Shown: piece by piece, positions 939-62,268 of the stretch
Layout: every line of letters starts with the position of its first letter
Position numbering within the stretch: position 1 is the stretch's first letter
Virus record (IMG/VR): IMGVR_UViG_3300009060_000024
DNA length: 64,000 nucleotides
Strand: one strand, 5' to 3'
Source of the DNA: an uncultured virus (IMG/VR IMGVR_UViG_3300009060_000024)
Taxonomy: Duplodnaviria > Heunggongvirae > Uroviricota > Caudoviricetes
The notes under the pieces: generated by a model
The model's database searches: none
Seen by the model: the letters and a program-made list of their open reading frames with translations, nothing else
Told to the model about the DNA's origin: nothing
Program-made: the position numbers and the translations under genes

Positions 939-2447
939 CTAGTGCGTCTCCAAGCTAACGTCGCCATTAATGAGTTTGTATCTGTACTCCCCCGCGTTCT
1001 TACTGTACTTCCAGTAACTCTGCCTGAAAGCCATGTTATGGCTAACACCAGTTCGGGTACTGCCGTCATGAGCTGCCATCTCGATGCATTTATCTAGTGC
1101 AACGCAAATGAACTCATCCTTTCGCATGTTGAGGGTTGACTTGTCGATGTATACAGTGTTGGTGTTGTCCTTCCACACCCTCTCGGTTTTACTGTATCCA
1201 GCGCTCACACTCCCATCGAACCCAATCTCCCGAAGGAACCATCGGGCACGTTCGAGGTTTTTAACACGTTTTTTGGTCAGTTCATTGGTGCTGAGTGGAC
1301 GCATCTCCCACTTCATCTCTTGGTCGATTACATCCTCCATGCTGTATATGGAAGAGCTGTCAATAAGGTTTTTGACAGCATCTTCAAAGCTAGAGTCTAT
1401 TACTATGACCCCAGCCTCGTCCATCGCCTTGTCAGACATTTTGTTTTGTTTCATCTGGAAGGAAATCTTTTCATCCTTCAACTGTTCGATGCTCCACTCA
1501 TCCCCGGTAACGTCGGGAATGATCTCCTTGGACCCGAACTTCTCAAGAGCCCTGTCGTCTCCCTTTATGCTATCCAGAGTCCAGTTAACCTCGCGGCGAG
1601 TGAGATCGTCTTTGTCAAACAGATGGTCAAGTGTTAGGCCATCGATCTCTTGCTTGATGGTCTTGTAAACTATGCACGTATCGAGTATGTCGTTGCGTGC
1701 AAAGTTGACATCTAGGTCTTTCTTACTGACAACATTGGTTCGAGTTGCAGTAAGCTTCTCATCAGTTACGTATGCTCCTAGGTTATAGATGCTGGTATGG
1801 AAACGCCATGCATCATTAACCCCAATGCTGTAGTATGCGTTTTCAGTCTCGTAGTTGTAATCGAACTCCTCGTACAGTTCTTCTCCGTTTAGAGTGAGTT
1901 CAATGTCATGGAGCCACGGGATGTACTTTACCAACTTCTTCACCTCATTAACTGTGTGTTGAAGGCCGTCAATGAGATTGTACAGTTCTACCTCGATTGA
2001 ACATCCGTCGAACTCATCGGATGTGTTTAGGACGTTGTAAGACAGTCCAGAACTGTCTAGTTCATGAGTGTCTCCATCAACATTCACCACGGTGTGGTTG
2101 TTGTCGAGATCGACAACGAGAATGTTGTTTTTCGTGTGCCAGATGTTCTTTCCAAAGTTGAAAATCTGGCCACGTCCCATTCGGAACTTCCCGAACTCTT
2201 TATCTTCAATGTCGGAGTCCTTAAGTCCGAACTTCTGGAAGTAGTTTTCTATGTCCTCCTCGGACATTCCCTTGCCGTCATCTTCAACGACGACAGCATC
2301 GGTCTTGATGGAAACATCAACCTTTGACGCTCCGGCGTCAACGGAGTTCATTACAGCTTCAAGAACTGCCTTTTCTACGGTTCCAGCCTGCTTACGCATT
2401 ACGTCGTTTAGCAGACCTTCTGTTGCCTCGAATTGTCGTTTTGGCAT
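939..2447 (-). CDS. GHKL (Hsp90/MORC-like) ATPase
   Basis: EAVMNSVDAGA (N box), EDDGKGM (G1), GKFRMG (G2). Confidence 0.85.
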   Translation of the reverse strand: MPKRQFEATEGLLNDVMRKQAGTVEKAVLEAVMNSVDAGASKVDVSIKTDAVVVEDDGKGMSEEDIENYFQKFGLKDSDIEDKEFGKFRMGRGQIFNFGKNIWHTKNNILVVDLDNNHTVVNVDGDTHELDSSGLSYNVLNTSDEFDGCSIEVELYNLIDGLQHTVNEVKKLVKYIPWLHDIELTLNGEELYEEFDYNYETENAYYSIGVNDAWRFHTSIYNLGAYVTDEKLTATRTNVVSKKDLDVNFARNDILDTCIVYKTIKQEIDGLTLDHLFDKDDLTRREVNWTLDSIKGDDRALEKFGSKEIIPDVTGDEWSIEQLKDEKISFQMKQNKMSDKAMDEAGVIVIDSSFEDAVKNLIDSSSIYSMEDVIDQEMKWEMRPLSTNELTKKRVKNLERARWFLREIGFDGSVSAGYSKTERVWKDNTNTVYIDKSTLNMRKDEFICVALDKCIEMAAHDGSTRTGVSHNMAFRQSYWKYSKNAGEYRYKLINGDVSLETH

Positions 2448-2496
2448 TTGTGTTGCCTCCGGCGAGCAGTTGTGTATAAATATGCTTACTCAGGCA

Positions 2497-2536
2497 AACT
2501 CTCCTGAGGAGTCGAACCCCAGTACTCCAAAAGAGC
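2497..2536 (-). ncRNA. mini-tRNA element t1 (acceptor-like stem plus T arm)
   Basis: GCUCUU-UUGGAGUA-CUGGGG UUCGACU CCUCAG-GAGAGU. Confidence 0.65.
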
Positions 2537-2540
2537 ATTA

Positions 2541-2858
2541 TTAGAACATTGAATATACGTTGTGTGCAGTTACAATGATACCTATAATGAGTAACGTCAA
2601 AGGTATAACAGCAGAGTATCTGTCATCCATGATCCTCCATATAACTAGAAGGACGCCAATTATTAATATTTTGTCTAACAGTAGTCCGAACATTCCATAT
2701 CTGTGCATTAGCATTGCAGGGATTTGATTTCTCTCTGACAACCCCATGTAATGTATACCAGCATATGTGGTAGCCATATCTCCCAAACCGTAAACAGCCG
2801 AAGACACGACGACTATTTTTGTTTGGTTGTCGGATATTGATTTGGCAACTGTGTTCAT
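2541..2858 (-). CDS. small membrane protein (DUF5658-like)
   Basis: GLGDMATTYAG...ERN motif and 3 hydrophobic helices. Confidence 0.65.
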   Translation of the reverse strand: MNTVAKSISDNQTKIVVVSSAVYGLGDMATTYAGIHYMGLSERNQIPAMLMHRYGMFGLLLDKILIIGVLLVIWRIMDDRYSAVIPLTLLIIGIIVTAHNVYSMF

Positions 2859-3179
2859 GTTATGCTCATGGTAATGTACAACAGCAAAAACGCGATAATT
2901 GCAGACAGTACGATGTATGATACAACGATGAATTTGTTTACGGTCCTAATTCTCGACTGCATCTTTGTATCTTACAACGTTAACTAATTCGAGGTGCGAT
3001 CCACCTCCAAACTCGCCATTCATAGCATCTTCTGCATCCTGCTTCTGTTCCCATATGCTGTTTCCACTAGCGCTGGTAAGCATCCTGTTCAGATCTGTGT
3101 TAAGGATGCCGTAGTACACTCTACCACTCATGCGCACCATTCTTCCCGCACACTTCGCATTGCCTGGTCATTGTTTTAA

Positions 3180-3236
3180 CCTTGTTTCGCTGGCACCACC
3201 CAGCTCATCAGGCCGCTTTTGGCTACGGCGACAAAA
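3180..3236 (-). ncRNA. type III hammerhead ribozyme
   Basis: UUUU-GUC^-GCCGU agccaaaa GCGGC-CUGAUGA-GCUGG guggug CCAGC-GAAA-CAAGG; complete core and three stems. Confidence 0.92.
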
Positions 3237-3255
3237 ATGAGTCTTAGTACGTTAT

Positions 3256-3465
3256 TTATATAGTGCTGTCTTCACCTCGTTCATCAAGCTCATCTATTAT
3301 CTGCTCCTTCACTATTACATGCCACACGCTGGCCCTTTGATTTCTCATCAATTTGTTTTGGTCTATGAAATCATCTATCTGTTGCAAATAGTTTCTAAGG
3401 TCATCTGTTTCATGGTCTTCGATCTCTTTATCGTCTATCTTATTTGGTGGCTGTATAGTTGTCAT
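3256..3465 (-). CDS. hypothetical protein
   Basis: 69-aa acidic ORF. Confidence 0.65.
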   Translation of the reverse strand: MTTIQPPNKIDDKEIEDHETDDLRNYLQQIDDFIDQNKLMRNQRASVWHVIVKEQIIDELDERGEDSTI

Positions 3466-3488
3466 ATATACTTTGTTTTTGTTGGTTG

Positions 3489-3746
3489 TTAGATGTACTT
3501 GAATGGGTCTTTGTCCGTGTTGTTCAGTATGTCCTTGAGATGTCTTGCGTCTAGTTCATCTGGATCGGTAGATCGGCTAAGGCTAACATCACCAGCTTTT
3601 TCTCCCCAGTTGCAAGTAGGGCAACCATCTCCACGCATGAACTTTTCGTATGCGTCTTCAGGTTGATCGTCCCACTCAGGAACTTCATGGTGCAGTGAAT
3701 ACACTCCATACGGTTCTCCGCATTTCTTACAGTGTACGTCAGGCAT
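3489..3746 (-). CDS. small Zn-binding protein
   Basis: CKKC and CPTC motifs. Confidence 0.7.
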   Translation of the reverse strand: MPDVHCKKCGEPYGVYSLHHEVPEWDDQPEDAYEKFMRGDGCPTCNWGEKAGDVSLSRSTDPDELDARHLKDILNNTDKDPFKYI

Positions 3747-3892
3747 TATTTACATCTCCTTGATGATGTCAGCGGCAGTGACTCCATCAATACGTTCCGC
3801 CATTCGCATTGCGGCCTCTCCAGAAGTTAGGTTACGGTCAGACTGAAGGCCCTTGGTGTGCTTTACAACTTCGTCAATATCAATGTTTTCAT

Positions 3893-4036
3893 TCATAGTA
3901 CAGTCAGTCCCACAGCAACCCCACACTCACGGCATTCATAAATCTGTTCACTTTCGTATGTTTTGTCGTCAATAAGACTGAAATCGGTGCTGTTACATTC
4001 TGGCGATGGGCATTGTAGGCAATGTATGTCTTTCAT
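3893..4036 (-). CDS. Zn-ribbon microprotein
   Basis: CPSPEC and CREC; start moved to MKDIH, downstream of element t2. Confidence 0.6.
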   Translation of the reverse strand: MKDIHCLQCPSPECNSTDFSLIDDKTYESEQIYECRECGVAVGLTVL

Positions 4037-4067
4037 CTGTGTTTGTGGCAGTAGGATGCCAGCCAAA

Positions 4068-4107
4068 TGCCATTGAGAGAATCGAACTCTCACTATACCA
4101 ATATGGC
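4068..4107 (-). ncRNA. mini-tRNA element t2
   Basis: GCCAU-AUUGGUAUAG-UGAGAG UUCGAUU CUCUCA-AUGGC-A. Confidence 0.8.
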
Positions 4108-4355
4108 TAGTGTTTAGTTTCCGCAGAGATGTAACGGAGGGTGACTAATGCCGATCTGATCCCGTCATGCTCGTACCCGTCCGAATGGACTATTGGATCG
4201 TGGTCGCACCCCTTTGACCAAAAGTCGTCAACAAATATTTGATCGCACTCAAAGCAATAGTATACGTCTGGGGTGGCGGCGGTCTTTCCTTTTTCTTCCT
4301 TCTGGCGTTCTAGCGCCTCTTCTAATCTCCTGATTGCGTGTGGTATATCGTTCAT
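4107..4355 (-). CDS. hypothetical Zn-binding protein
   Basis: CFEC...CDH. Confidence 0.65.
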   Translation of the reverse strand: MNDIPHAIRRLEEALERQKEEKGKTAATPDVYYCFECDQIFVDDFWSKGCDHDPIVHSDGYEHDGIRSALVTLRYISAETKH

Positions 4356-5415
4356 TTATCTGATCCTCCCGTCTGAGGGCGACATCCACCAGCAGCAGAC
4401 TGAGCAGAACGACGGGTCCCTCCCATGAACGCAACGCTTCTTCGTGTCGTTCCGGACAATGGTTCGTTTCACTTCGCTCACGAGTCTCCCTCCTGCGAGG
4501 CGTCCGCAGAGGCTGAGAGTCGCTCAAACCGGATTGAACGAAGCTTGCGATATATCCAACCTTGAGGAGTGTGCATCAATGTGTAATGCTTGAACCATTC
4601 CCACTGGCAAATGAGAGCGTGTTCGCTCACCATCGACCACCCACAGTGACACGTTATCCGAAATCCGATTTCTGCCGACCTTGGGAGTCCGAAAATCCAC
4701 TCTTCCCCTCCTTGTTCAGTATCATTCGTCATCAATACTCATCAAATTTTACCCTGTGTTCGTTTCCATCTCTATCCGTCCACACCAAAACGCCCCCGCT
4801 AAGATCACCGAGACGTAGAGGTCTTTGTTCAGTTCTACCCATCTACTTCACCTCAGATTGTTTAGTTTCCGCTTCTGCTTCACTCACCAATTTCCAATCA
4901 ATAGAGTACGATACCCGATTTTTCAACATTAGTTGCTTAAGGGCTACACGTCCCCTGCGCCCAAATTCCTTAACAACCCTATCCTGCTCAACGGGTTCGT
5001 TATCTATTATAAATTGTTCAACTTCGTCCATCGGTCCATCGCCTCCTTCACGCTCATTTGTCCATATGTCCATTGTGTCCTGTAAGAGTTTCATAATCGC
5101 CGCACATCCATGCAAGGATGCGTTCAGCCTCCTCCTCGTCTTCCCGACGAAGAGATTCGGCTATGTAATGCTCTATGCTTGGATATGGTCTCTGTGTCAT
5201 TCCTACAAGGTCTTCGTTTCGTTTCATGTGTAATATCTACTCTTATCTAACGTCGTTCATCATGAACGATCCTACCATAGACAAAAAACACATGGAACAC
5301 AACACTATAGCAGCATCAACTCCATAATTAAAATACGAATACAATCCAATGATTGTTATACCGAACAGTGCAAATGTAGGACCAAATGCGTTAGGGTTAA
5401 CTATCGGTTCTGGTG

Positions 5416-5739
5416 TCATTTGTTCATCTCTGCTTCTTTGTATGTCTCAAGCCACTCTTTAGCGTCGTCATAGTTATTTCTTGCGGTGATGATTTTACCA
5501 TCGCTCCAAATATCACTGTTGACGCATTTCCAAACGTCATCTTCATTACGCTCTATACTTATTACGCATGTGTCAAACTCCACTATTTCAGCTTTTATTT
5601 GAGGAGTTTGTTTGCCTCTGTCCATGTAAGTGGCTATTGGACAGTCGTTATTAGAGCAATAATGCTGTTTTGGAGCCAGATCATGTGACACTTCTCCCTC
5701 TTCTTGATTGCACAGTGGACAATTAGTTTTAATCACCAT
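5416..5739 (-). CDS. hypothetical protein with N-terminal Zn finger
   Basis: CPLC...CSNNDC. Confidence 0.65.
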   Translation of the reverse strand: MVIKTNCPLCNQEEGEVSHDLAPKQHYCSNNDCPIATYMDRGKQTPQIKAEIVEFDTCVISIERNEDDVWKCVNSDIWSDGKIITARNNYDDAKEWLETYKEAEMNK

Positions 5740-5745
5740 TCTTAA

Positions 5746-5787
5746 TGCCCATCTCCAGAATTGAACTGGAGTTATACCAATATGGGT
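5746..5787 (-). ncRNA. mini-tRNA element t3
   Basis: CCCAU-AUUGGUAUAA-CUCCAG UUCAAUU CUGGAG-AUGGG. Confidence 0.8.
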
Positions 5788-6623
5788 CAGTCTTCGTGAG
5801 GGACAGGTGTTATTCCCTCACTTGTATTATGATCTCTGCTAATGTGTATAAGAACACGTTTTAGAGCGTCGCTTCTGTCACACTCATCATCATACATAAA
5901 GTACACTCCGCATTTGTCACATTTGTATCCATCGACCTTAAACATCGTTGTCCAAAAGATCGACTGCTACACTTTTAGACATGGATTCAATGCCATCAGC
6001 TATGTCTTCATCTCCAGCAACACTAAGGAAAACCTTAGCAGCAGTCATGCATTTGAACGCTTCCATTCTAAGATCGTATATCTCCTGATCTCTCTTTGAT
6101 TCGGTTTCGTCTTTTTCCATGTTGTTTTTGGTATGTTTGTCGTATAGGCACGTGCAGGCGTCGTGTGCCGTTTTGTGTACACAGGTACAAAGACACTTGT
6201 ATATGTCTACGCGGCCTGTGTGGGCTTGTGTGTCGGTGTATCGGGGCTTCGGGACTGCCGACCCCGGTTAGATGTAATTCCTCACGTTGTAGCTTGGACC
6301 TGTGCCAGTCAAAGCAGTGCCCAGATCGATGCCACAACCCTCGCAATTGTCAGTCAGTTCATCTCCGTGAGCGGGTTCGTTGTCAAACCCGCAAAATCTA
6401 CACTTCATTGTCATTGTGTGGTTACACTCCCCATGAAGGGTGCCATTACGTAGTGCTGATCATGAGCGAAGTTAGAATGCTCTATTGCGTCTTCCATTGC
6501 CTCTTTGTCGAGGTCATAATCTTCGTACATGAACTTTTCTTGGCAGCCTGTGCAGATGAAGCCTTTGTATTTAGACATCTTTTCTAACAGTATAACGTGT
6601 GTTGCTTTGTCATTTGTTTCTCC

Positions 6624-6676
6624 GCCTTTTAGCGTTACCCAGCCAGCACCACGAGGAGGTAAGGCTCTTGCTGGCC
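6624..6676 (-). ncRNA. HDV-like self-cleaving ribozyme (minimal) A
   Basis: P1 GGCCAGC/GCUGGCU (G1-U), P2 GCCUU/AAGGC, P3 ACC/GGU, L3 UCCUCGU, P1.1 CC/GG, J4/2 CUAA. Confidence 0.92.
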
Positions 6677-6779
6677 ATAAACTATGTTCGTTATGTGTTA
6701 GTGAGGAGTTCTATAAGCATTATTATGAACCCTGCTAACATCATCACCAATACAATTTCGATTAATATGCAACACATCT

Positions 6780-7289
6780 CTACATAGTCTCAATATTGTC
6801 TATTGAAGTTTCCCATATTGGAACAGCTGCATACCCATTGCCTCTAACGCTTACATCGAAGCGCAGGGCAAGGTACTTATCATCTCTCACATTGAAACCC
6901 TCCCTCTTTTTTGCCATCCTCTTGTACTTACGTTTGACATGATCACTCTGTAGTATGTTGGTTTTCCCAGACTCTAATCCGGGGCCAAATATCAGTCCGA
7001 ATTGGCATGGCCGAAGTTTACCTGTGACTTTGTACTTCTTTGATGTGTATTGTGGAGATTTTTCCGTAACCTCAGCCTCAAATGGAACTCCTTCTGCATC
7101 CATTTTCTTTGACTGAGTGTATGTCTTGTTAGCTCTTGGAGTTCTATCAACTGCCTTTTCAATTGACCTCGCAATCGTTTCGTATTTGTACACTTTCTCC
7201 GCTTTAGTGTACGGAGACTCCAAGAACCTTACTCTGTACTTCTTTTTTGTACCAAGCGTGTAGTACGCTATTTTATCTGACAATGACAT
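6780..7289 (-). CDS. hypothetical basic protein
   Basis: 169-aa K/R-rich ORF. Confidence 0.7.
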   Translation of the reverse strand: MSLSDKIAYYTLGTKKKYRVRFLESPYTKAEKVYKYETIARSIEKAVDRTPRANKTYTQSKKMDAEGVPFEAEVTEKSPQYTSKKYKVTGKLRPCQFGLIFGPGLESGKTNILQSDHVKRKYKRMAKKREGFNVRDDKYLALRFDVSVRGNGYAAVPIWETSIDNIETM

Positions 7290-7291
7290 TT

Positions 7292-7744
7292 TCAGTCTTC
7301 GATCATTGGTTGCATGATTTCATTCCATGTGTCTCCATCGGTGCTTACTTGGTTTATAGGAGCTCCAACTCTACCACACAACCATTTAAACGCCGCTGAC
7401 GAGTCGCTTATCTGGTACTTGTCATGCTGATACGTGTATAAATGTACCATCTCATGCAACAAAGTCATCTTTATCCGATCATCCTGTTCGCACTCTAGGT
7501 ACGATTGGGAGAATCTGAGAAAGGTATACTTCCCACCATCTCGGTAAAAAGCCTTTGCATTAGCGCGTTTTATGCGTGATGAAACTTCGATGAAGTCACA
7601 TTTAATCTCCTCGGGGAACTTTTGTTCGAGATCATCAAACCATTCGTTAAGTTTGTCTTCCCACTTTGAGTGAGGGTAAGTTCTGTACGGATGGTTCGCA
7701 CCGTTATTTTTGTCTGGAACTCCAGTTAAGTCGTGTATTCCCAT
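7292..7744 (-). CDS. SprT-like zinc metalloprotease
   Basis: TLLHEMVHLY motif preceded by a SprT-like beta region. Confidence 0.8.
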   Translation of the reverse strand: MGIHDLTGVPDKNNGANHPYRTYPHSKWEDKLNEWFDDLEQKFPEEIKCDFIEVSSRIKRANAKAFYRDGGKYTFLRFSQSYLECEQDDRIKMTLLHEMVHLYTYQHDKYQISDSSAAFKWLCGRVGAPINQVSTDGDTWNEIMQPMIED

Positions 7745-8538
7745 TATTGATTGATGATCATGGAGAAAACATCTTTTGCCTTCTCCAATTCACCGATTTG
7801 TACAAGGCCTGAAATGTAATCGAACAGTTCGTCTTCACCAGATAGTACAAGTGTTAACTCGACATGTTCAGACTCTCTGTCTTGCTGCTGTTCGTCTTCG
7901 TCGTCATCGTCTTGTTTGTTTATGATTCCTTGGTCAACAGCTTTTTCTATGATCTCGTCTGTGTCTGGCGTTTTCTTGAACCAGTTTTTGAGTTCGTCTT
8001 CGACAAATCTGTCATCTGTCATCCAACCCTTGGCCGTGATTGTACTTGAAACAGTTGAGTGACTCTCATACCCCATGTTATCAGCTATTGCTCTGTATGA
8101 CATGTCTGGGTTGTTGTAATGCCACGCGAGAGTCTCCTGCCTGTCTTCAGATAAGTCGCTGAAGGTTGTGACAGGTGGCCGTCCCATAAGAGTATAATGA
8201 ATGTCTTCATCCTGAAGGATTCTGACAACCTTGTCCTTTGACTCTCCTGAAAGATCGCAGACCTTATCAATCTCCTTGTTGGAGATGTCGGGTCCAAGAC
8301 CGTCCACGTTGCCAGACTGTATACGCTTGAACGCCTTAACGATCCTCATGTAATTGGACATTTCAGGATCGGAAGGTATGACATCTGGGTACACTCGCAT
8401 GATAAGGTCGTCTGTTGACCTCCCCCTGTGAGCAGAGTCGTTCATGCTGTTTATGTGCTGTACAATGCGCTTTCGGACACTTTTAGTCCTTCCACAAGCG
8501 CGGCACTGGTACTGTAACTCAGTCTCGTCTACTGTCAT
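7744..8538 (-). CDS. Zn-finger/HTH transcription regulator
   Basis: CRAC...H...H and SYRAIADNMGYESHSTVS HTH. Confidence 0.7.
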   Translation of the reverse strand: MTVDETELQYQCRACGRTKSVRKRIVQHINSMNDSAHRGRSTDDLIMRVYPDVIPSDPEMSNYMRIVKAFKRIQSGNVDGLGPDISNKEIDKVCDLSGESKDKVVRILQDEDIHYTLMGRPPVTTFSDLSEDRQETLAWHYNNPDMSYRAIADNMGYESHSTVSSTITAKGWMTDDRFVEDELKNWFKKTPDTDEIIEKAVDQGIINKQDDDDEDEQQQDRESEHVELTLVLSGEDELFDYISGLVQIGELEKAKDVFSMIINQ

Positions 8539-8800
8539 TGTTTTGTTCTACGGGTTCTGCTTCTGACTCTTCGTGTGTGTATGCGTTGAACAGTTTGTTT
8601 TGAGCCCCAACGCAAATGATGATAGAATCTCTTGCAAATTCTAACTCATCCCCGTATTCCTCATGTGGAAGGGTATTAATGGCACTTCTGTACTCCTCCA
8701 TCATGTTTTTATTCGACTGAATGAGTGCTATTAACTCATCCTCTGTTAGATTTACTTGATACGTCATTGTTTGATACCATCCTGTTTTCTGGATGGCTGA

Positions 8801-8860
8801 TGGCAGGTTAAGGGAGTTGAACCCATGTTATATGTCCCACCAAACTGGGTAACACCTGCT
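8801..8860 (-). ncRNA. tRNA-like element t4 lacking the anticodon arm
   Basis: GCAGGU/ACCUGC stem; D-like arm CCCA-GUUUGG-UGGG; T arm GGG-UUCAACU-CCC. Confidence 0.7.
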
Positions 8861-8890
8861 ATATAGATAACCGTTATGGCTGTGAGTTAT

Positions 8891-9247
8891 TTAATACTGA
8901 AACTCTAGAATATACTTGATCTTATCTGCTTCGTCGTAAAGCTGTCCTGTGACATCTCCTCGGATGTGGAGTTCTATCGTGTCGTCGCAACCACACTCCT
9001 TGATTTTATTCTCCCCGAAGTAACTCATCAACGCTCCATAAATCTCTAAAGGAGTGTCGCCTTGATACCGTTCAATTGCTTTGCATGACTCATCTATTTC
9101 GTCATACACAGACTGTTCGATGTCTCTGATCTCGTCCTCGCTTTCGTAGTCAGTGTCTTCAATATTTCCAATTGCTGACTTGGCTATCTCTCGACCAGCG
9201 CTGTATGCGGTATGCCGTATCTCGTTTGTGAATGGATTTTCTTTCAT
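8891..9247 (-). CDS. hypothetical acidic protein
   Basis: ORF; start MKENP follows element t5. Confidence 0.7.
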   Translation of the reverse strand: MKENPFTNEIRHTAYSAGREIAKSAIGNIEDTDYESEDEIRDIEQSVYDEIDESCKAIERYQGDTPLEIYGALMSYFGENKIKECGCDDTIELHIRGDVTGQLYDEADKIKYILEFQY

Positions 9248-9258
9248 TTTTACCCCAA

Positions 9259-9300
9259 TGACCATCCTGAGAATTGAACTCAGGCAATACCAGTATGGCT
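9259..9300 (-). ncRNA. mini-tRNA element t5
   Basis: GCCAU-ACUGGUAUUG-CCUGAG UUCAAUU CUCAGG-AUGGU. Confidence 0.8.
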
Positions 9301-9318
9301 AATTCTGTTATACCTGTG

Positions 9319-9723
9319 TCAGTAATGGCTGTGGAACGACTTGTATTCCTCAGTCATAACATCATTATACGCATCTTTGTCTATAGTATAGACAAGCCAC
9401 ACAGAAAACTCTTGCCCGTCCTTTGATTCCCTACTTTCCTCACCATACTCAACATGAGATACTCTACGAAGCTCTATCACACCATCTCGGGCGAGATGTT
9501 TTAGAACAACTGCGGGTTTCGTACTCCATGAAATGTTAGTATCAGCATCCATCCCATGTACTGTAGGGGTGAACTCATGCTTGTTTTCTTCGCGGCATCT
9601 AACATCTATCTGATGCCCAAATCCGTTTACTTCTGTTATCCCAAACTGACCATCTAGCCAGTTAGCCATCTTTTCTCCAACGCTCAATTCTTCTACCTCC
9701 ACTGTTTCTTGTTTATCTGCCAT
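9319..9723 (-). CDS. hypothetical protein
   Basis: ORF; start MADKQ follows element t6. Confidence 0.7.
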   Translation of the reverse strand: MADKQETVEVEELSVGEKMANWLDGQFGITEVNGFGHQIDVRCREENKHEFTPTVHGMDADTNISWSTKPAVVLKHLARDGVIELRRVSHVEYGEESRESKDGQEFSVWLVYTIDKDAYNDVMTEEYKSFHSHY

Positions 9724-9741
9724 TGTTGGGTTTTCGCCCGA

Positions 9742-9783
9742 TGCCCATGATAGGAATTGCACCCATTCGATTCTATTATGGGT
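9742..9783 (-). ncRNA. mini-tRNA element t6 (divergent)
   Basis: CCCAU...AUGGG UGCAAUU CCUAU-C-AUGGG. Confidence 0.6.
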
Positions 9784-9784
9784 A

Positions 9785-10132
9785 TTATGTTCTAGGTATA
9801 ACTAATTCATCGTAGAAAGACCAATCTATATCTTCCACTTCGTCATCTGCTCTCTCCTGTAGTTCTCTATGTTCACTTTCTGCCATTCCAATCGCGTCTA
9901 TTCCTCTTGTTCTAGCGTCAACAAAGAACTCCACCGCTTCTTGTAACATGGTAGAGTGGTAAACCATCTCATGTTCTTTGTCTAGTTCAATTTGTCTCTC
10001 TGTTAGTTCTTCGTCCGATTCGTCTAATTTAACTTGGTGGGTCTCTTCTGCTGTTTCGTCTGGGGGGTAGAATCTGTCCGCTGTCTTTGCTCTCTCCCAA
10101 CATAACCATTTTAGGAACTCGTGTTCGTTCAT
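9785..10132 (-). CDS. hypothetical acidic protein
   Basis: ORF; start MNEHE follows element t7 and a GCAA hairpin. Confidence 0.7.
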   Translation of the reverse strand: MNEHEFLKWLCWERAKTADRFYPPDETAEETHQVKLDESDEELTERQIELDKEHEMVYHSTMLQEAVEFFVDARTRGIDAIGMAESEHRELQERADDEVEDIDWSFYDELVIPRT

Positions 10133-10156
10133 TGTATTGCTGCCCTTGCGGGCGAG

Positions 10157-10199
10157 AGCCATATAGGGAATTGGACCCTATGCTAACACCAGTATGGCT
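10157..10199 (-). ncRNA. mini-tRNA element t7
   Basis: AGCCAU-ACUGGUGUUAGC-AUAGGG UCCAAUU CCCUAU-AUGGCU. Confidence 0.75.
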
Positions 10200-10202
10200 A
10201 AG

Positions 10203-10276
10203 TGCGACAGGTGGGATTTGAACCCACAACCTCAGCCTTATAAGGACTGCACTCTACCTAGTTGAGTTACTGTCGC
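10203..10276 (-). tRNA. tRNA-Ile(TAT)
   Basis: GCGACAG/CTGTCGC-A; CAGTC-CT TAT AA-GGCTG; T-loop TTCAAAT. Confidence 0.9.
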
Positions 10277-11210
10277 CCGAAGATTGTTATTATTCTATTC
10301 TGTCTTATTGCTGGACCCCATTATTTGAGTTGTCTTTGATGCATGGCTTACACGTCCACCAATCTTTACCGCATGACTCGCATGCATCAAATGGAACTCC
10401 GTCAAAATTTGAAACAACTGTGTTACCGCAATGGTGACACTCCCATTTATATTTAACTACATTCGACATAGCTTGCACCTCTTATTACTCCCGTCCAGTT
10501 CTCTTGCTAATGGTACACCACACTTCTCACAGTGTTCTCCCGTTAGCGTGTACTTCTGTGTTATCATTGTTCTGGATTGGTTAGTAAGCTCCTTATGTAT
10601 GACGAAGTTACATCATGACAGTTAACACTCCATGGTTCTTGCATTTGACCTCCATGTTTGTTTTGGTTGTGACTACACCTCCGTCAATCTCAGTTGATCT
10701 GACGGGGAACTCGCTTTTTATTAACTCGTTACCACAGTACGGACAGTATCTGAAGTCGCAAACTCCAGATATTTGTGTGCGTTTATCTGATGACATCTTA
10801 ACGAACCCTCGTAGCCGATTCGATAGCAATTCTCGACAGCGTGATTGATGCTGGAACGCAGAACAGAATCGAAATTGCCATCATCATCATTACAACTGAC
10901 CCGCCGCCAATAACCCTAAGGATGTCAGCGATTATTATTGAAGCTGTTATTACAGGCGCAAGCCCTCCGAAGCTTCCATCTGACATTGGGTTTATCTCCG
11001 TAAGCAGAGGGTATGATGACAGTATCAGTATGTATGCGTTAAACATCAACTGTTCTGCCAGTTGCATTGTCTATCGTGTATAGGTGTTAGTTTTGCCGTG
11101 TTTGGGGCAGATGAACTTTTCTCCCTTTCGGATGCAACGGGCCTCGCAGTTGTTACAGTATCGTGCGCTGTACTCCAGGTCGTTTCCGAACTCCTCTAGG
11201 TCTACCATTG

Positions 11211-11405
11211 TTATAGCTTGAGTTTGGTGATCGAAGCTTCGTCGTCGTCCTCTGCCATCGAAACAATGAGTTCGTACAGGCTCATTGGAAGGTCCGCCTC
11301 TCGGTAGTAGTTACCGCTTTCTGTAACTTCCCCGTGTCCTTCTTTCTCGACACGTTTTTCAGCCTCTTCCTTGTCCGTCTCGAACTCAATTCCTATGGTT
11401 GTCAT
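11211..11405 (-). CDS. hypothetical protein
   Basis: 64-aa acidic ORF directly downstream of ribozyme B. Confidence 0.7.
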   Translation of the reverse strand: MTTIGIEFETDKEEAEKRVEKEGHGEVTESGNYYREADLPMSLYELIVSMAEDDDEASITKLKL

Positions 11406-11416
11406 TCGTGCAGTTG

Positions 11417-11471
11417 ACCTCGTTCAGTGTTAACCGAGGGAAGCTCTGGGAGCTAAGAGGTTACAACCCTC
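11417..11471 (-). ncRNA. HDV-like ribozyme B (variant)
   Basis: P1 GAGGG/CCCUC, P2 ACCUC/GAGGU, P3 AGC/GCU, L3 UCCCAGA, GG, UUAACA, CUGAAC. Confidence 0.7.
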
Positions 11472-11518
11472 GTGTACGTATAATTGTCGCCTGCGCGCAC
11501 AAACGGCGCGCTACCCCT

Positions 11519-11531
11519 TAAATATAACGGC
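11519..11531 (-). promoter_or_regulatory. viral promoter-like motif GCCGTTATATTTA
   Basis: Identical 13-mer also at ~295-307 (-); similar GTCGTTATATTTAAA at ~59545-59559 (-); TATA-like. Confidence 0.55.
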
Positions 11532-11774
11532 ACTGATCGAACAGTTACACGCTGCCTTGTCGTATGTCCTCCTGGGTTAAAACCTCTCCCCCGACTCTCA
11601 CAGCATTGACATCCATGTTTTGTATGGCCGTTTTTTCTGGTCCGTTGTCCATGCTGCTGATCATTTGTTCGTATGCAACTCTTGAATTTGGCCCGTTGCC
11701 AAATCCTATCATGAGGTCCATTCCCTCATCTTCTCCATCGTTTTCGACTGTGTAAAACAGGTACTTAGACATGT

Positions 11775-12062
11775 CTACCCATCCTGATCCTCAGGAATTA
11801 CAGATGCCCACTCGCTGATTTGGAACTCCACCTCTCTCTTTCCACGGGGTGTGAGTGTGTACTCGTTAGACCTTGCATCCTTCTCGGACTTGTCAACGAG
11901 TGACATTTTGACGAGTTCGTCGAGGTTAGGATATAGCCTCCCGTTATTAATCTTGCTCTCGTAGTAATGCTCCAGTTCATCAGCAATCTCCAGTCCGTTA
12001 GGACTGTTTAGCTTTGCGATTGTTCTGATGCAGTCTCGTTGGAATCCGGTTAAGTCGTGCAT
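11775..12062 (-). CDS. PadR-family wHTH regulator (haloarchaeal type)
   Basis: MHDLTGFQRD...GRLYPNLDELV...NEYTLTPRG. Confidence 0.9.
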   Translation of the reverse strand: MHDLTGFQRDCIRTIAKLNSPNGLEIADELEHYYESKINNGRLYPNLDELVKMSLVDKSEKDARSNEYTLTPRGKREVEFQISEWASVIPEDQDG

Positions 12063-12322
12063 TAGAGGTAGTGTTCTTTTGCAGCAGCGTATCCCTTTGC
12101 GAATTGGGGAACGTACTCAAGTGAGCCATCTTCCGTGTAGTTGGCATCTTGAGCTTGCTCTACCACGGTTTCACTGTTCACATCGTACACGCTAAAAACG
12201 TGAAACACGACGTGATCTCGATACTTGAACTCGTGTTCATACACCTCCACATCGGGATTAAAAACGTCCCAGAGTGACGTGTGTACGTTGAGCATTGGTT
12301 GCTCAAATGGTGCGTCGTTCAT
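12062..12322 (-). CDS. hypothetical protein
   Basis: Start MNDAP just downstream of ribozyme C. Confidence 0.7.
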   Translation of the reverse strand: MNDAPFEQPMLNVHTSLWDVFNPDVEVYEHEFKYRDHVVFHVFSVYDVNSETVVEQAQDANYTEDGSLEYVPQFAKGYAAAKEHYL

Positions 12323-12330
12323 TGTGTGCA

Positions 12331-12386
12331 ACTGCATCTTAGTGTTAACCAGAGCCTACCACGAGGAGGTGTGCAGTGCAGGCTCC
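12331..12386 (-). ncRNA. HDV-like ribozyme C
   Basis: P1 GGAGCCU/AGGCUCU, P2 ACUGCA/UGCAGU, P3 ACC/GGU, L3 UCCUCGU, GG, UUAACA, CUAAGA. Confidence 0.9.
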
Positions 12387-12403
12387 GTAAAGAAAGAGTG
12401 TGT

Positions 12404-12661
12404 TTAATCGAACAGGTTGGAACTTTCACACAGTTTAGTGATAGAAACGTTTGACTCCTGCCTTTCATCGCATTTGGTACACCGCCTGAGTATACACTCA
12501 CCGTGATCACGTCTTACAGTACTGTAACTCCATTCGTGCCCGTGTGACGAGCATGGGGGGTGTACTACGACTTCATCTCGTAGACTGTTTTTAAGAGTGA
12601 CATCCTCTCCGCTTTGTAGTTTTTCAAGCTGTTCCTCCGAAATGGTGTATTTGTGTTTCAT
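12404..12661 (-). CDS. hypothetical Zn-binding protein
   Basis: C...GHEW...CTKC. Confidence 0.6.
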   Translation of the reverse strand: MKHKYTISEEQLEKLQSGEDVTLKNSLRDEVVVHPPCSSHGHEWSYSTVRRDHGECILRRCTKCDERQESNVSITKLCESSNLFD

Positions 12662-12677
12662 TGTTTGTTGTGGGTAT

Positions 12678-12947
12678 TCAGCAACTGAACATCGTTCTTC
12701 CCTCTGCGTCGTGGACGAACATAATGTCAGACTCGCATGCCCACTCGAAGTAACCGGGGATGTCACCTCCGATGATGGAGAACACTCTTTCCCCATGATC
12801 GTTGTCGTGATGGTACACTATCTGAGTAACCTCCTCATATGTATACCATTCTGCTTCAGCTCCCCAGTTGTTATCGAGATGTCTGATTCCTACTCGCATG
12901 TACGAATCGTTCCACGGAATGCTGTCAGGCAGTTGGTTTGCTCTCAT
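12678..12947 (-). CDS. hypothetical protein
   Basis: Start MRANQ just downstream of ribozyme D. Confidence 0.65.
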   Translation of the reverse strand: MRANQLPDSIPWNDSYMRVGIRHLDNNWGAEAEWYTYEEVTQIVYHHDNDHGERVFSIIGGDIPGYFEWACESDIMFVHDAEGRTMFSC

Positions 12948-12958
12948 GTGTGCAGTTC

Positions 12959-13010
12959 CCACGTTCAGCGAATCACTCCCAGCTCTTGAAGCTAAGTGGT
13001 ACTAAGGAGC
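12959..13010 (-). ncRNA. HDV-like ribozyme D (variant)
   Basis: P1 GCUCCU/GGGAGU (G1-U), P2 CCAC/GUGG, P3 AGC/GCU, L3 UUCAAGA with compensatory P1.1 UC/GA, UUCG, CUGAAC. Confidence 0.75.
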
Positions 13011-13030
13011 GTGTGATCGTATCGTGTGCG

Positions 13031-13564
13031 TTACATCAGTCCAGAGTCAACCAGTTCTTTAGTAGTGTGATCGTCGCAGACTCTCCTGTGATTTATCTTC
13101 ACCCAGTCTCCAGTTATTATATGGAGGTCTTCTCCACACACTGGGCAGTTTCTGTACATCGATGGCTGGTCATTTCTCCCATGCTGGTTTGCAGCTTTGT
13201 CTATCGCTCGGAGAGCGTTCCTTGGAGATTCGTTAAGTAGAGTGAACAGATCCATGTCAAGCTCTGCCTTGACAAGCCACTTTGTGTAAGCGACATCTTG
13301 ATCTGTCATCCAGTAGCGTTCGAGATTCTCCGTCTGGTACTTTTTCTTCCATCTGGAGTTCTTTTTCTTTTTCTCATAGACGACTGCAACATCGTCTTGA
13401 GCGTCGACCCCGAACACTAACTCTCCATTCTTCTCGTAAACAGATAATCTGGGTATTCGTTCTTCGGTCTTTGGGTAGGCACTCGAACTGCTTGAGGTTT
13501 TGCCACCATTCTTGACCTGCCGTTGAATATCCTCAGATTGATCTGCGAGATCTTTAATGTTCAT
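13031..13564 (-). CDS. hypothetical protein with C-terminal Zn finger
   Basis: CPVC...CDDH. Confidence 0.75.
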   Translation of the reverse strand: MNIKDLADQSEDIQRQVKNGGKTSSSSSAYPKTEERIPRLSVYEKNGELVFGVDAQDDVAVVYEKKKKNSRWKKKYQTENLERYWMTDQDVAYTKWLVKAELDMDLFTLLNESPRNALRAIDKAANQHGRNDQPSMYRNCPVCGEDLHIITGDWVKINHRRVCDDHTTKELVDSGLM

Positions 13565-13576
13565 CGTGCATCGGTT

Positions 13577-13635
13577 TGTGTCCTACGTTTGGTTGATCCA
13601 GCACCAGCTCGGGGAGCTAAGTAGGCACAGGCACC
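13577..13635 (-). ncRNA. HDV-like ribozyme E (variant)
   Basis: P1 GGUGCC/GGUGCU, P2 CCUAC/GUAGG, P3 AGC/GCU, L3 UCCCCGA, GG, CCAAAC. Confidence 0.7.
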
Positions 13636-13781
13636 GTATAATAATGGCACTAAACCCTACTGGTTTTCTGTAGGGATTAGTACCAGTCGGTATCGTATCG
13701 AATACCCACTACTTCTTCAGTCTCGTCATCGAGTTCCCAGACTGCTCTGTCAGTGGGGTGCGATCCGGTTTGGCTCATCGT

Positions 13782-14318
13782 TTACTCGTCGTCCTGTTCC
13801 TCGTCGTCGCTGTAGGCGTCCTCAGCGGCGTCGGACATCGAGCTGTCGTCGTCCTCGTCGTTGCCAGCCTGCTCTGCACGAGCCTGCTTAATGGCGTCGT
13901 TGAGGTCGGACAGCTCGAACTCGGACGCGACGACGTACTGCGCCACGTCCTGCTCGTCGAACCCGAGGAAATCCATGAGCGGAACTGCGCCCTTGGGCTC
14001 CTCGCCGTCCGGTAGCTCGGGAAGGTTGCCGATCACACCTCCGATGTAGTGCGCGAGGTAGATCTGGAAACGGGTGTACCACTCCTCGTGGTTGCCGCTC
14101 GGTGCGAGCTTCTTGAGGCTGGTACGGACAGTACCGTTTTCCTTCGTGACCTCCCACGCGAGGCTGTCGAACCACTCCCAGCCAGAGACATCCTTGTACT
14201 TGTCGTCCCCGTCGGTCGAGTAGACGTTAGCCACGAGGCTCTTGGCCTGTGAGATGTCACTGCCCTGCTGGTCGTTGTTCTGCTCTTCGCCGCCGAGTAG
14301 GTCTTTGACTCCAGACAT
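13782..14318 (-). CDS. very acidic protein with host-like high-GC codons (probably highly expressed, early)
   Basis: Almost exclusively G/C-ending codons, unlike neighbours; first gene after the structured leader. Confidence 0.85.
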   Translation of the reverse strand: MSGVKDLLGGEEQNNDQQGSDISQAKSLVANVYSTDGDDKYKDVSGWEWFDSLAWEVTKENGTVRTSLKKLAPSGNHEEWYTRFQIYLAHYIGGVIGNLPELPDGEEPKGAVPLMDFLGFDEQDVAQYVVASEFELSDLNDAIKQARAEQAGNDEDDDSSMSDAAEDAYSDDEEQDDE

Positions 14319-14324
14319 TGTGCT

Positions 14325-14855
14325 GTCTTGCCGGTTACTTATGGCAGGGGCTCTGACCATTATCCCCTAACGCCTGTTTCCGACTCAAGGCGCTGCTACA
14401 GATGGGTATAAATTCGTCTGTACCGTAACCGGATGCACATTCTTCCCAGCGCAAGCTAATTCGCAGATTTCTTTTCGCTGTATTGGCTCCTTGGATTAAG
14501 CTTCCCTAATTGCACAGCCGCTCCGCTGGAAAAATTCTCGGCGTCATAGCAACTGCTGGGGCATCCCTTTTCATAGGGCGCGCTCCTTCAAGCGTTTAGC
14601 TAATACTGCTCCCACGCAACGCTGGTCGCAGATTCACTTGAACCCTCTGGTTCGCAAGCGCTGGGGCTTACCCGATCCCATCTCTTGGTTATAGCTACCG
14701 CTATGCCGAGATCCCCCTGTCGGACTACAGGGCATTCTACTCGGCGGATGGTCATGTGTCCGCTGTCCAGACCAGTAGGTCGCGGCAGTGTCGCCACTGC
14801 TACTGGTGTATGGCTTACTTCTGTCCGCGCGCGACTGGTTTTCGCTCGCGCGCAG
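14325..14855 (-). ncRNA. large GC-rich structured RNA or leader of unknown class
   Basis: No credible ORF; more than 12 hand-identified helices, including long-range CCGGUUAC/GUAACCGG and GGAUGC-CCCAGC/GCUGGG...GCAUCC. Confidence 0.7.
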
Positions 14856-14875
14856 TTAACAGAACGAGCGCTCGA

Positions 14876-14889
14876 AACTTAAAGCTTTC
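14876..14889 (-). promoter_or_regulatory. haloarchaeal-type promoter (BRE/TATA) GAAAGCTTTAAGTT
   Basis: Purine-rich BRE plus TTTAAG, ~25 nt upstream of the first hairpin of the structured RNA. Confidence 0.65.
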
Positions 14890-15292
14890 TATTTTTCAAA
14901 GCGAAAATTCGAGGTAGAACAATACGTATTGCTTTCTTCCGCCCCCGTAAGGGCGTGTACGTCGAAAATTCAGGCGTTACAACATCGCTGTTCGATGCGC
15001 TACTGAAAACTGCAAGTAGAAGCCTTGTACCCCCTATACACCCCCACTATGGGAAATTGCGCTTGTGGATCATATGTCTGTAGCACCATTAGGATAGACG
15101 TGCAGACGGTATTTTACTCTCTCCCACTCTATTGCATACGGTAGGCAGATGTAATCTCATAAAAAATTCAAACGTCTCTATGGAGAGTGTCAAATAGCGG
15201 TTTTGGGTGCCAATATACGGGCAAAACCGCAACACGGTAGCGTAATGCCGGAAGTGTAAACGTTCTTACCTAGGGTATATAGAGCATTAGAT

Positions 15293-62155: not shown

Positions 62156-62268
62156 TGGGAGTGGGAGGGATCGAACCCCCGTCACAGATGTCATGATTGA
62201 GTTAGCGACATATGGCAATTTTGTTTGATGCTCACCATTACTGTGACATTCCATTAAATTACACTCCC
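62156..62268 (-). ncRNA. atypical tRNA-like RNA (~113 nt)
   Basis: Acceptor GGGAGTG/CACTCCC-A and T arm GGGGG-TTCGATC-CCTCC, but the anticodon arm is replaced by a branched insert. Confidence 0.7.

Follow-up and report, generated by a model that had tools for sequence, protein, structure and literature searches.

Hepatitis delta virus (HDV)-like and hammerhead ribozymes both cleave RNA to leave a 2',3'-cyclic phosphate and a 5'-OH end, and RNase P and tRNase Z hydrolyse it. The tRNA punctuation model of animal mitochondria treats tRNA-like folds at RNA borders as processing substrates, and minimal HDV-like ribozymes are said to have been reported from phages by Riccitelli et al. in 2014. Here we analyse a 64,000-nucleotide (nt) stretch of the IMG/VR record IMGVR_UViG_3300009060_000024, an uncultured virus classified in the Caudoviricetes; the whole stretch is called the window below. 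Its minus strand carries an array of genes interleaved with HDV-like ribozymes, a hammerhead ribozyme and compact tRNA-like elements, which we term mini-tRNAs. These elements are conserved with covariation, occur on the sense strand only and lie precisely between genes. We consider it probable that they form an RNA-processing system between cistrons, carried by a mobile element whose host is halophilic and probably archaeal.

Described systems and how the locus compares

According to a 2019 review, the roles of self-cleaving ribozymes in bacteria, archaea and viruses are largely elusive, and the processing of polycistronic transcripts is there only 'suggested' (PMC6765202). Theta ribozymes are minimal HDV-like ribozymes without P4 found in gut Caudoviricetes phages (Kienbeck et al. 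2024, PMC10879173). The main text of that paper describes a minimal class that 'lack[s] the P4 domain', with members from metagenomes and gut Caudoviricetes active in vitro, and places 526 non-tRNA theta ribozymes mostly in intergenic regions and in sense to their neighbour genes; about 99% of its reported ribozymes are in bacteriophages, and the word 'archaea' is absent from that main text (PMC10879173). The HDV-like elements of the window share with the theta and drz-Mtgn types the P1/P1.1/P2/P3 pseudoknot, the lack of P4 and a C at the first J4/2 position. Furthermore, the core of the window subtype with a P1 of 7 base pairs (bp), CCUCCYCGUGGU...GGKUAACRCUAA, is found letter for letter on eight unrelated IMG/VR viral contigs (GC 26–59%), none of which carries a mini-tRNA; the window ribozymes are hence new members of a known viral class. 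A second subtype, with a 6-bp P1, J1/2 UAGUA and J4/2 GCUGAAC, may be a variant when compared with the main text of the theta paper. Unlike the theta ribozymes, the window elements are carried by a halophile, probably archaeal element, they sit 7–17 nt before start codons, and none adjoins a tRNA or mini-tRNA (the nearest pair, 11417/10276, is more than 1 kb apart). As theta ribozymes are defined by a cleavage site within about 5 nt of the 3' end of a tRNA gene, the window elements are not theta ribozymes in the defining sense.

For hammerheads, multiple copies flanking prophage genes were proposed to process long phage transcripts, and in the haloviruses HF1 and HF2 a hammerhead lies 13 nt upstream of the start codon of the early operon, with a mapped 5' end at most 3 nt from the cleavage site (Perreault et al. 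2011, PMC3088659). In the window, too, an early-type polycistronic array of a halophile element has a ribozyme a few nt ahead of a start codon, and the hypothesis that long transcripts are cut to operon- or gene-length mRNAs is shared with Perreault et al. In contrast to the HF1/HF2 ribozyme HHphage, which is a core-insertion variant, the window hammerhead has a canonical type III design, and it is a minority device (1 of at least 13) that occurs alongside HDV-like ribozymes and tRNA-like processing elements (t-elements), a combination absent from the 2011 paper. A t-element upstream of the 5S rRNA of Haloferax volcanii is cut in vivo by tRNase Z and RNase P (PMC4326828), and t-elements mark mRNA ends in plant mitochondria (Forner et al. 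2007, PMC1920247). The mini-tRNAs are, like these, non-decoding tRNA-like folds at mRNA or rRNA borders and have the T-arm motif GGUUCRANYCC in common with them. Unlike known t-elements, they are only 39–48 nt long, in a design in which the acceptor stem stacks on the T arm and the D and anticodon arms give way to a short UGG linker; they occur six to nine times per element within one mobile-element operon, and they are interleaved with self-cleaving ribozymes.

Each ingredient, as well as the idea that ribozymes process phage operons, has been published before. What is new is how densely the classes are mixed, that HDV-like ribozymes are present in a probable archaeal element and how regularly the devices are placed. 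The original prediction, a model's reading of the sequence that preceded this analysis, knew of no comparable system in an archaeal virus; the novelty does not extend to the parts or to the operon-processing idea, and for the mixture and its density no earlier account was found. In the main texts of a limited library there was no description of a compact mini-tRNA family that recurs within a single operon, of two ribozyme folds densely interleaved with t-elements, or of complementary placement rules. The same limited library held no literature on HDV-like ribozymes in archaeal or halophile elements or viruses, for which the supplementary lists of the theta paper may hold cases.

Ribozymes and tRNA-like elements of the gene array

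About 45 mostly small, acidic genes are co-oriented on the minus strand (Table 1), among them genes for PadR-like, SprT-like and CxxC proteins (Pfam); the distal gene (2447-939) encodes a HATPase_c_3 protein of 502 amino acids (aa). Between 2.4 and 13.7 kb the array holds five HDV-like ribozymes, one hammerhead, six mini-tRNAs, one larger tRNA-like element and tRNA-Ile(UAU), and every class named in the original prediction is present on the minus strand where it had been placed. Counted by eye on the gene map, 13 of the 15 minus-strand gaps of at least 45 nt between 2448 and 14360 hold a device, in keeping with the earlier statement that most longer intergenic gaps contain one in sense orientation. 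No recognised device lies in the gaps 6267-6121 and 4477-4356, and whether the second of these is coding is uncertain. Together, the devices mark out about 15 segments of one to eight genes each.

HDV-like ribozymes were sought with a descriptor of the nested double pseudoknot. P1 had to be 6–7 bp long with G as its first base, P3 to span 3 bp and P2 at least 4 bp; L3 had to fit U-N-N-N-N-G, P1.1 to complement L3, and J4/2 to contain a C. In its strict form the descriptor matched four times on the minus strand of the window (13635, 13010, 12386 and 6676), compared with 0.15 matches expected per 64-kb strand (mean of 60 dinucleotide shuffles), and gave one chance-like match on the plus strand; five matches in 2.69 Mb of unrelated IMG/VR loci correspond to the same rate as in the shuffles. 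The element at 11471 satisfied the descriptor only when one P1 mismatch was allowed. With an nhmmer profile of the family, exactly five elements were recovered from the window, each of them on the minus strand; 1.35 Mb of background gave none. The six ribozyme 5' ends predicted earlier, that of the hammerhead included, agree to the nucleotide with those given by the descriptors. At gathering thresholds Rfam reports only tRNAs in the window, and its sub-threshold HDV-family matches comprise one to RF00094 that starts exactly at 6676 (40.6 bits versus a gathering score of 50, E = 0.0045), one to drz-agam-1 (RF01787) at the same element (31.4 versus 37 bits) and one to RF02682 that starts exactly at 12386 (30.5 versus 44 bits). 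The best score in a relative is 41 versus a gathering score of 44. The Rfam models of this family include P4 and cannot encode pseudoknots.

The predicted fold of the HDV-like elements is a nested double pseudoknot of P1, P2, P3 and a 2-bp P1.1, with a putative catalytic C and an HDV-type L3, and cleavage is predicted 5' of G1. All parsed members have G at position 1 and an L3 of the form U-N-C-N-N-G, and the C at the first J4/2 position is invariant in both aligned sets (A3 and A4, described below); the base at -1 is a pyrimidine at all 16 sites of the window and its relatives. After P1.1, GUAAC-GCUAA or UU(AA)C-GCUGAAC runs directly into P2, so that J1.1/4 is joined to J4/2 with no P4, which assigns the elements to the minimal HDV-like class. 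A compensatory variant is seen in the 13010 element, whose L3 is UUCAAGA and whose P1.1 is GA/UC. As a separate observation, many HDV-like elements have GAGG, GGGG or CAGG and then AAA at the 3' strand of P2, 7–17 nt ahead of the AUG. This sequence could also act as a Shine-Dalgarno-like site, hidden or uncovered by the folding of the ribozyme.

At E<1e-3 the covariance model R1 recovers six mini-tRNAs from the window, each on the minus strand between 2.5 and 10.2 kb. True tRNAs match it only at E>0.05, and in 833 kb of background, drawn from loci that are unrelated or distantly related, no match exceeds 17.3 bits, versus 24–52 bits within the family. Mini-tRNAs have an acceptor stem of 5–7 bp, a T stem of 5–6 bp and a T loop of the form U[UCG]C[AG]ANN, whose closing G-C pair is invariant (41/41). 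Their predicted fold is that of a t-element, in which the acceptor stem is coaxial with a T arm bearing a tRNA-type T loop and there is no anticodon. Seven anticodon-less tRNA-like elements had been proposed; R1 recovers six, and the seventh, the larger element at 8859-8803, is seen in one fold, has no match from R1, Rfam tRNA or ARAGORN and is, as a single instance, the weakest of the seven. The true tRNA proposed to lie among the devices is found by both Rfam and ARAGORN. Short GC hairpins lie between a mini-tRNA and the next start codon in two places, GCCC-GCAA-GGGC near 10150 and GGG-CGAAAA-CCC near 9732.

The hammerhead descriptor has a single site in the window (3236-3180) and none in the 2.69 Mb of background. 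The element reads GUC, the predicted cut, GCCGU...GCGGC, CUGAUGA, GCUGG...CCAGC and GAAAC, which is the predicted organization of a type III hammerhead: a CUGANGA...GAAA core, an NUH triplet, stems I and II closed by loops and stem III open. A search of a short stretch with Rfam Hammerhead_3 (RF00008) gave a full-length alignment with the CUGAUGA...GAAA core and the GUC triplet intact, while the element was absent from the E<10 matches in a 13.5-kb Rfam scan.

Conservation and covariation in related loci

The HATPase protein has hundreds of homologues with 36–52% identity, many of them on contigs of 80–110 kb; the window's own contig is about 79.7 kb. Related loci were gathered from metagenome contigs, a genome collection and IMG/VR by means of an alignment of 30 HATPase homologues. 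The close clade comprises HATPase-linked loci with 38–76% protein identity, which come from hypersaline-type records and include a scaffold labelled Candidatus Nanosalina J07AB43. It contains 11 HDV-like elements (10 distinct in sequence), three hammerheads and 29 mini-tRNAs at E<0.01. At least one device is present in 14 of its 20 non-duplicate loci, at least two classes in six and all three in two (L238 and L242). With the window included, the gene strand carries all HDV-like elements (16/16), all hammerheads (4/4) and all mini-tRNAs (35/35). Conservation in related contigs, a check proposed with the original prediction, is thus found for all three classes, again on the gene strand, between genes and with covarying helices. 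No devices were found in distant HATPase loci (25–37% identity). Within a 1.2-Mb Nanosalina-labelled assembly (G001), all nine mini-tRNA matches share a strand and fall within a 41-kb part of one 112-kb scaffold, which marks the devices as part of the element and not of the host genome in general.

Some positions can be followed from locus to locus. The mini-tRNA just upstream of the HATPase gene is kept in relatives L237 and L238. HDV-like elements follow homologous genes for 250–277-aa proteins (24–66% identity) in L242 (7034), L244 (2842), L280 (3659) and L243 (5105), and the ribozyme subtype differs among these four; the position is conserved here and the device has been exchanged or has diverged. 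Other routes to relatives gave little: megablast against phages found no nucleotide match, tblastn with the HATPase protein returned only 25%-identity matches in Acinetobacter phage records, and single-protein scans of IMG/VR found no relatives. More than 230 IMG/VR loci collected in short-motif scans were rejected as chance matches (five descriptor matches in 2.69 Mb, none with the family motif) and served as the background set.

Every predicted helix is backed by covariation, both HDV pseudoknots included. A combined HDV alignment (A2) misregistered members with 6-bp and 7-bp P1 helices and was split into A3 (6-bp P1, nine sequences) and A4 (7-bp P1, five sequences). A3 is paired in 99.3% of 137 cells, and 10 of its 16 pairs are changed on both sides, with the changes spread over P1, P2, P3 and P1.1; partners slid out of register pair in 32–48%, and the covariation score is 0.696 versus 0.218 when shuffled. 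P1 of A4 is paired throughout (100%), and six of its seven pairs are changed on both sides; P2 of A4 reads 48% because MAFFT loses the register, and per-sequence parses give 5–8 bp. P1.1 covaries with L3 (UCC/GG, UUC/GA and UGC/GC), which is hard to account for except by an HDV fold. The mini-tRNA set (41 rows fitted to the model) is 98.2% paired with nine of ten pairs changed on both sides, a covariation score of 0.919 versus 0.202 when shuffled and 36–54% pairing of slid partners. The four hammerheads are 95.2% paired, with four pairs changed on both sides, three of them in stem I, and slid partners pairing in 40–50%; stems I and II are compensated in the relatives.

Placement relative to stop and start codons

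Ribozymes sit close to the downstream start codon and mini-tRNAs close to the upstream stop codon. All 16 HDV-like elements of the window and its relatives are intergenic, and 15 of them end 7–17 nt (median 11.5) before the ATG of an open reading frame (ORF) of at least 30 aa. The window elements at 13635, 12386 and 11471 end 12, 8 and 11 nt before the ATGs at 13564, 12322 and 11405, respectively, and the 13010 element is 7 nt from ATG 12947, counted from its extended P2 end at 12955. G1 follows the previous stop codon at a median of 24 nt, and at 17–32 nt in 12 of the 16. All four hammerheads are intergenic as well, as are 34 of the 35 mini-tRNAs, 20 of which begin at most 19 nt after a stop codon, several at 0–4 nt; the median distance from a mini-tRNA to the next ATG is 31.5 nt. 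Because placement relative to stop and start codons is stereotyped, precise and testable RNA ends can be predicted.

Table 1. Features of the gene array, listed along its minus strand. A3 and A4 are the 6-bp-P1 and 7-bp-P1 alignments and R1 is the mini-tRNA covariance model.
Feature	Position	Strand	Evidence
Gene array divided by devices	939..14360	-	ORF maps, Pfam, acidity
HDV-like, 6-bp P1, no P4; predicted 5'-OH end 13635	13582..13635	-	Strict descriptor; nhmmer E = 5.4e-8; all four helices pair in A3
HDV-like, 6-bp P1, no P4; predicted 5' end 13010	12959..13010	-	Descriptor, nhmmer, A3
HDV-like, 7-bp P1, canonical ACCUCCUCGUGGU core, no P4; predicted 5' end 12386	12331..12386	-	RF02682 30.5 bits; descriptor; P1 covariation in A4
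HDV-like, 6-position P1 with one U-U mismatch; predicted 5' end 11471	11417..11471	-	Relaxed descriptor only; nhmmer E = 2.5e-9; A3 row
tRNA-Ile(UAU), followed 3 nt on by a mini-tRNA	10203..10276	-	Rfam 69.8 bits; ARAGORN
Mini-tRNA: 7-bp acceptor stem, UGG-bearing linker, 5-bp T arm	10157..10199	-	R1 46.6 bits, E = 3.3e-11; descriptor; weak Rfam mascRNA match
Mini-tRNA, begins 2 nt after stop codon	9744..9782	-	R1 38.3 bits, E = 1.3e-8; descriptor
Mini-tRNA	9261..9299	-	R1 50.9 bits; descriptor
Larger tRNA-like element: 6-bp acceptor, D-like hairpin, T hairpin (UUCAACU), no anticodon arm	8803..8859	-	Single fold, z = -1.71
HDV-like, 7-bp P1, canonical core, linker GGGUAACGCUAA; predicted 5' end 6676	6624..6676	-	RF00094 40.6 bits; drz-agam-1 31.4 bits; descriptor; A4
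Mini-tRNA, begins immediately after TGA stop	5748..5786	-	R1 49.7 bits; descriptor
Mini-tRNA, first paired base is last base of TAG stop	4069..4107	-	R1 50.5 bits; descriptor
Type III hammerhead; predicted cut after GUC, between 3230 and 3229	3180..3236	-	Descriptor; RF00008 full length 28.2 bits; stem I/II covariation
Mini-tRNA, second subclass (linker UGGAGUAC, T loop UUCGACU), just upstream of HATPase gene	2498..2536	-	R1 23.8 bits, E = 4.6e-4; descriptor

A proposed processing mechanism and its alternatives

From the elements and their positions we infer cleavage, read-through transcription, the enzymes involved and the consequences for expression; the cutting of long transcripts in particular is plausible from placement. 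The array would be transcribed through its gaps into multi-gene RNAs, which two kinds of signal would then cut. The five P4-less HDV-like ribozymes and the type III hammerhead would self-cleave at their own 5' edge and leave the upstream RNA with a 2',3'-cyclic phosphate shortly after its stop codon. Since both ribozyme types are predicted to cut at this edge, nearly the entire fold would stay on the downstream RNA, which would start with a 5'-OH on a compact ribozyme fold and continue through a leader of 7–17 nt to the AUG. The mini-tRNAs, with an acceptor/T-arm stack of 11–12 bp and a UGG linker mimicking the D loop, may be recognised by the host tRNase Z and possibly by RNase P, whose cuts would give the upstream message a 3' end right behind its stop codon and release the downstream message with a 5'-phosphate. 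The outcome would be about 15 RNA segments of one to eight genes, with ends, and through them stability and translation, fixed separately for each segment. The original prediction spoke of three independent chemistries, which is overstated, as HDV-like and hammerhead cleavage are one chemistry and RNase P and tRNase Z both hydrolyse. The arguments in favour of read-through are indirect. The 5' strand of P1 is under selection and must therefore be transcribed, so transcription must start upstream of each ribozyme; G1 is only 17–32 nt from the preceding stop in 12 of 16 HDV-like elements, and a TATA-like motif near -26 to -33 is present at only 1 of the 16. In favour of the enzymatic part of the proposal, the candidate host assembly G001 encodes an RNase Z.

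Several observations weigh against this proposal. Segments of up to about eight genes mean that processing would not proceed gene by gene, and the products would not be uniformly the gene-sized mRNAs that had been expected. The descriptors were designed with the elements already seen, so their shuffle and background rates gauge specificity and not blind discovery. Most HDV rows were picked by a descriptor that demands pairing, which inflates the percentages of paired cells; the diversity of compensated pairs, the elements recovered by profile only (11471 and L280:1060) and the placement data are unaffected by this selection. No Rfam HDV match in the window or a relative reaches its gathering score, so the Infernal check suggested for the minus strand succeeded in the exact starts at 6676 and 12386 and failed at the threshold; the hammerhead is likewise below its gathering score (28.2 versus 48.5 bits). 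Two of the five window HDV-like elements are imperfect, 11471 through its P1 mismatch and 13635 through three G-U pairs in P1 and the least canonical J4/2 of the five (CAAAC). A cut by RNase P at the 4107 mini-tRNA would remove the last base of a stop codon, and no archaeal RNase P RNA was detected in G001, the sole candidate host assembly, which is incomplete and linked by binning. Finally, AT-rich tracts lie directly upstream of many ribozymes.

A more specific form of the proposed processing system, which we put forward tentatively, is a modular punctuation code with a division of labour, in which ribozymes of two folds write 5' ends and t-elements write 3' ends through the host tRNase Z. 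Internal cistrons would then become near-leaderless mRNAs with a 5'-OH, suiting leaderless-type initiation in archaea and resisting decay that depends on the 5' end, and one or a few promoters could drive about 15 differently fated messages without host mRNA-specific endonucleases. If such a code holds, it would be the first case in which the operon-processing role long suspected for self-cleaving ribozymes of phages and prophages can be read directly from anatomy, as well as the first report of HDV-like ribozymes in an archaeal system.

The AT-rich tracts bear most directly on an alternative that we judge unlikely, namely that a separate promoter, overlapping the end of the gene upstream, serves each segment and that the devices are 5'-leader modules instead of cutters of polycistronic RNAs, trimming a short triphosphorylated leader to a 5'-OH or 5'-phosphate or promoting translation in the manner of an internal ribosome entry site. 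The tracts immediately precede many cleavage sites, there is a TATA-like TTATAT 56 nt upstream of 11471, and the tight spacing of 7–17 nt to the AUG fits a leader role; moreover, HDV-like ribozymes of R2 and L1Tc elements are described in the 2019 review as promoting translation initiation (PMC6765202). However, there is no TATA-like motif at a fixed distance: one is found near -26 to -33 at only 1 of the 16 HDV-like sites, a count for which no promoter scan with an archaeal model was made. The 17–32 nt between stop codon and G1 in 12 of 16 cases also leave scant room for a promoter outside the upstream ORF, and the mini-tRNAs, which often begin 0–4 nt after a stop, are tied to the upstream message.

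This tie to the upstream stop codon, with a median of 31.5 nt to the next ATG, would equally suit mini-tRNAs that are mainly products or 3'-terminal structures, such as mRNA-stabilising ends, substrates of CCA addition or small RNAs titrating host tRNA-binding factors, which seems improbable to us. The UGG conserved in the linker and mimicking a D loop suggests selection for a full tRNA elbow, the candidate host assembly yielded no RNase P RNA, and there is an analogy with mascRNA, which is a released tRNA-like product. Against this, only the T loop and UGG are constrained, so there is no sign of a sequence-specific product, and mini-tRNAs take turns with self-cleaving ribozymes in gaps of the same kind, which speaks for cutting as their common role. 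In addition, tRNase Z and RNase P both efficiently cut t-elements of similar design in Haloferax (PMC4326828). A view of the devices as small mobile modules of RNA or DNA, either selfish or recently spread as repeats, that do no processing for the carrier is hardly credible: several copies with similar cores do occur per contig, and subtypes are mixed at homologous positions after the 250–277-aa protein family in relatives, but all 55 elements are on the sense strand, only 1 of 55 lies inside an ORF, the spacing to start codons is fixed, and the helices are much diverged with compensation where recent copies would be near-identical.

For the RNA-processing system as proposed, an operon with at least 13 devices of three classes offers a natural test case for ribozyme function. 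The predicted ends are a 5'-OH at each of the six ribozyme positions in Table 1 and tRNase Z ends one base after each discriminator base. If the proposal is correct, operons would be punctuated interchangeably by ribozymes and tRNA mimics, the known range of HDV-like ribozymes would widen to archaeal mobile elements, and the devices would provide compact, salt-adapted processing parts for archaeal genetics.

The carrier and a candidate host

The proteins of the window are acidic, with an isoelectric point below 6 in 19 of 21 and with 19.5% Asp plus Glu versus 11.3% Lys plus Arg, and this, together with the hypersaline-type relatives, fits a halophile with a salt-in strategy. The window encodes an integrase, an MCM/clamp-loader-like ATPase and an HNH nuclease and has ten tRNA matches and many ORFans. 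Searches with Pfam and PHROGs found no capsid, portal or terminase in the window or in the related assembly G001, and for tail-fibre-like proteins there is one weak language-model lead (score 0.92). The 112-kb Nanosalina-labelled scaffold encodes a PolB with a LAGLIDADG insert, a dCTP deaminase, a DNA methylase, an integrase and fibre-like proteins, has no core cellular gene among its 59 ORFs of at least 180 aa and looks like a mobile replicon. The carrier of the devices is therefore probably a large mobile element, likely a virus, of a halophilic archaeon. The words viral and early in the original prediction go further than these findings. The idea of an integrated provirus is not supported, with GC uniform at 0.41–0.50 and no att-like repeats found. 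G001 encodes an RNase Z (322 bits), the link of this incomplete genome to the element as host being by binning only.

Other features of the array and the window

The device-free gap at 6121-6267 (-) contains a GC-rich hairpin (CGGGG...CCCCG) and a second hairpin, and may divide two transcription units by a terminator and a promoter. At the head of the array, about 930 nt (14361-15292, -) are ORF-free and of higher GC; 14361-14900 folds better than shuffles (z = -2.68), and the region, which has no Rfam match and no similarity in the related loci, could be a structured RNA of a new kind or a leader. Similar AGAAAAC(C)A hairpin loops are found at 13675-13655 (-), between a stop codon and the HDV-like element 13635, and at 8797-8776 (-), right after the larger tRNA-like element. 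Directly after the hammerhead (3171-2946, -), a 16-codon CxxC ORF (ATG 3171) overlaps a 64-aa ORF (ATG 3140) in a different frame. The two could both be genuine, or could together represent one small zinc-finger gene that is split or frameshifted.

Outside the array, 62156-62268 (-) holds an unusually long tRNA match (30.4 bits) in which the acceptor stem, D arm and T arm fit and the anticodon region has 63 nt where the model has 18 (fold z = -2.54). It could be an intron-bearing tRNA, which would fit an archaeal host, or another tRNA-like RNA, and a tRNA match of unusual length is also present in L238 (18715-18872, +). Four tandem paralogous genes of about 110 aa each lie at 43068-44403 (-), where the DNA also contains repeated segments (families D2 and D16).

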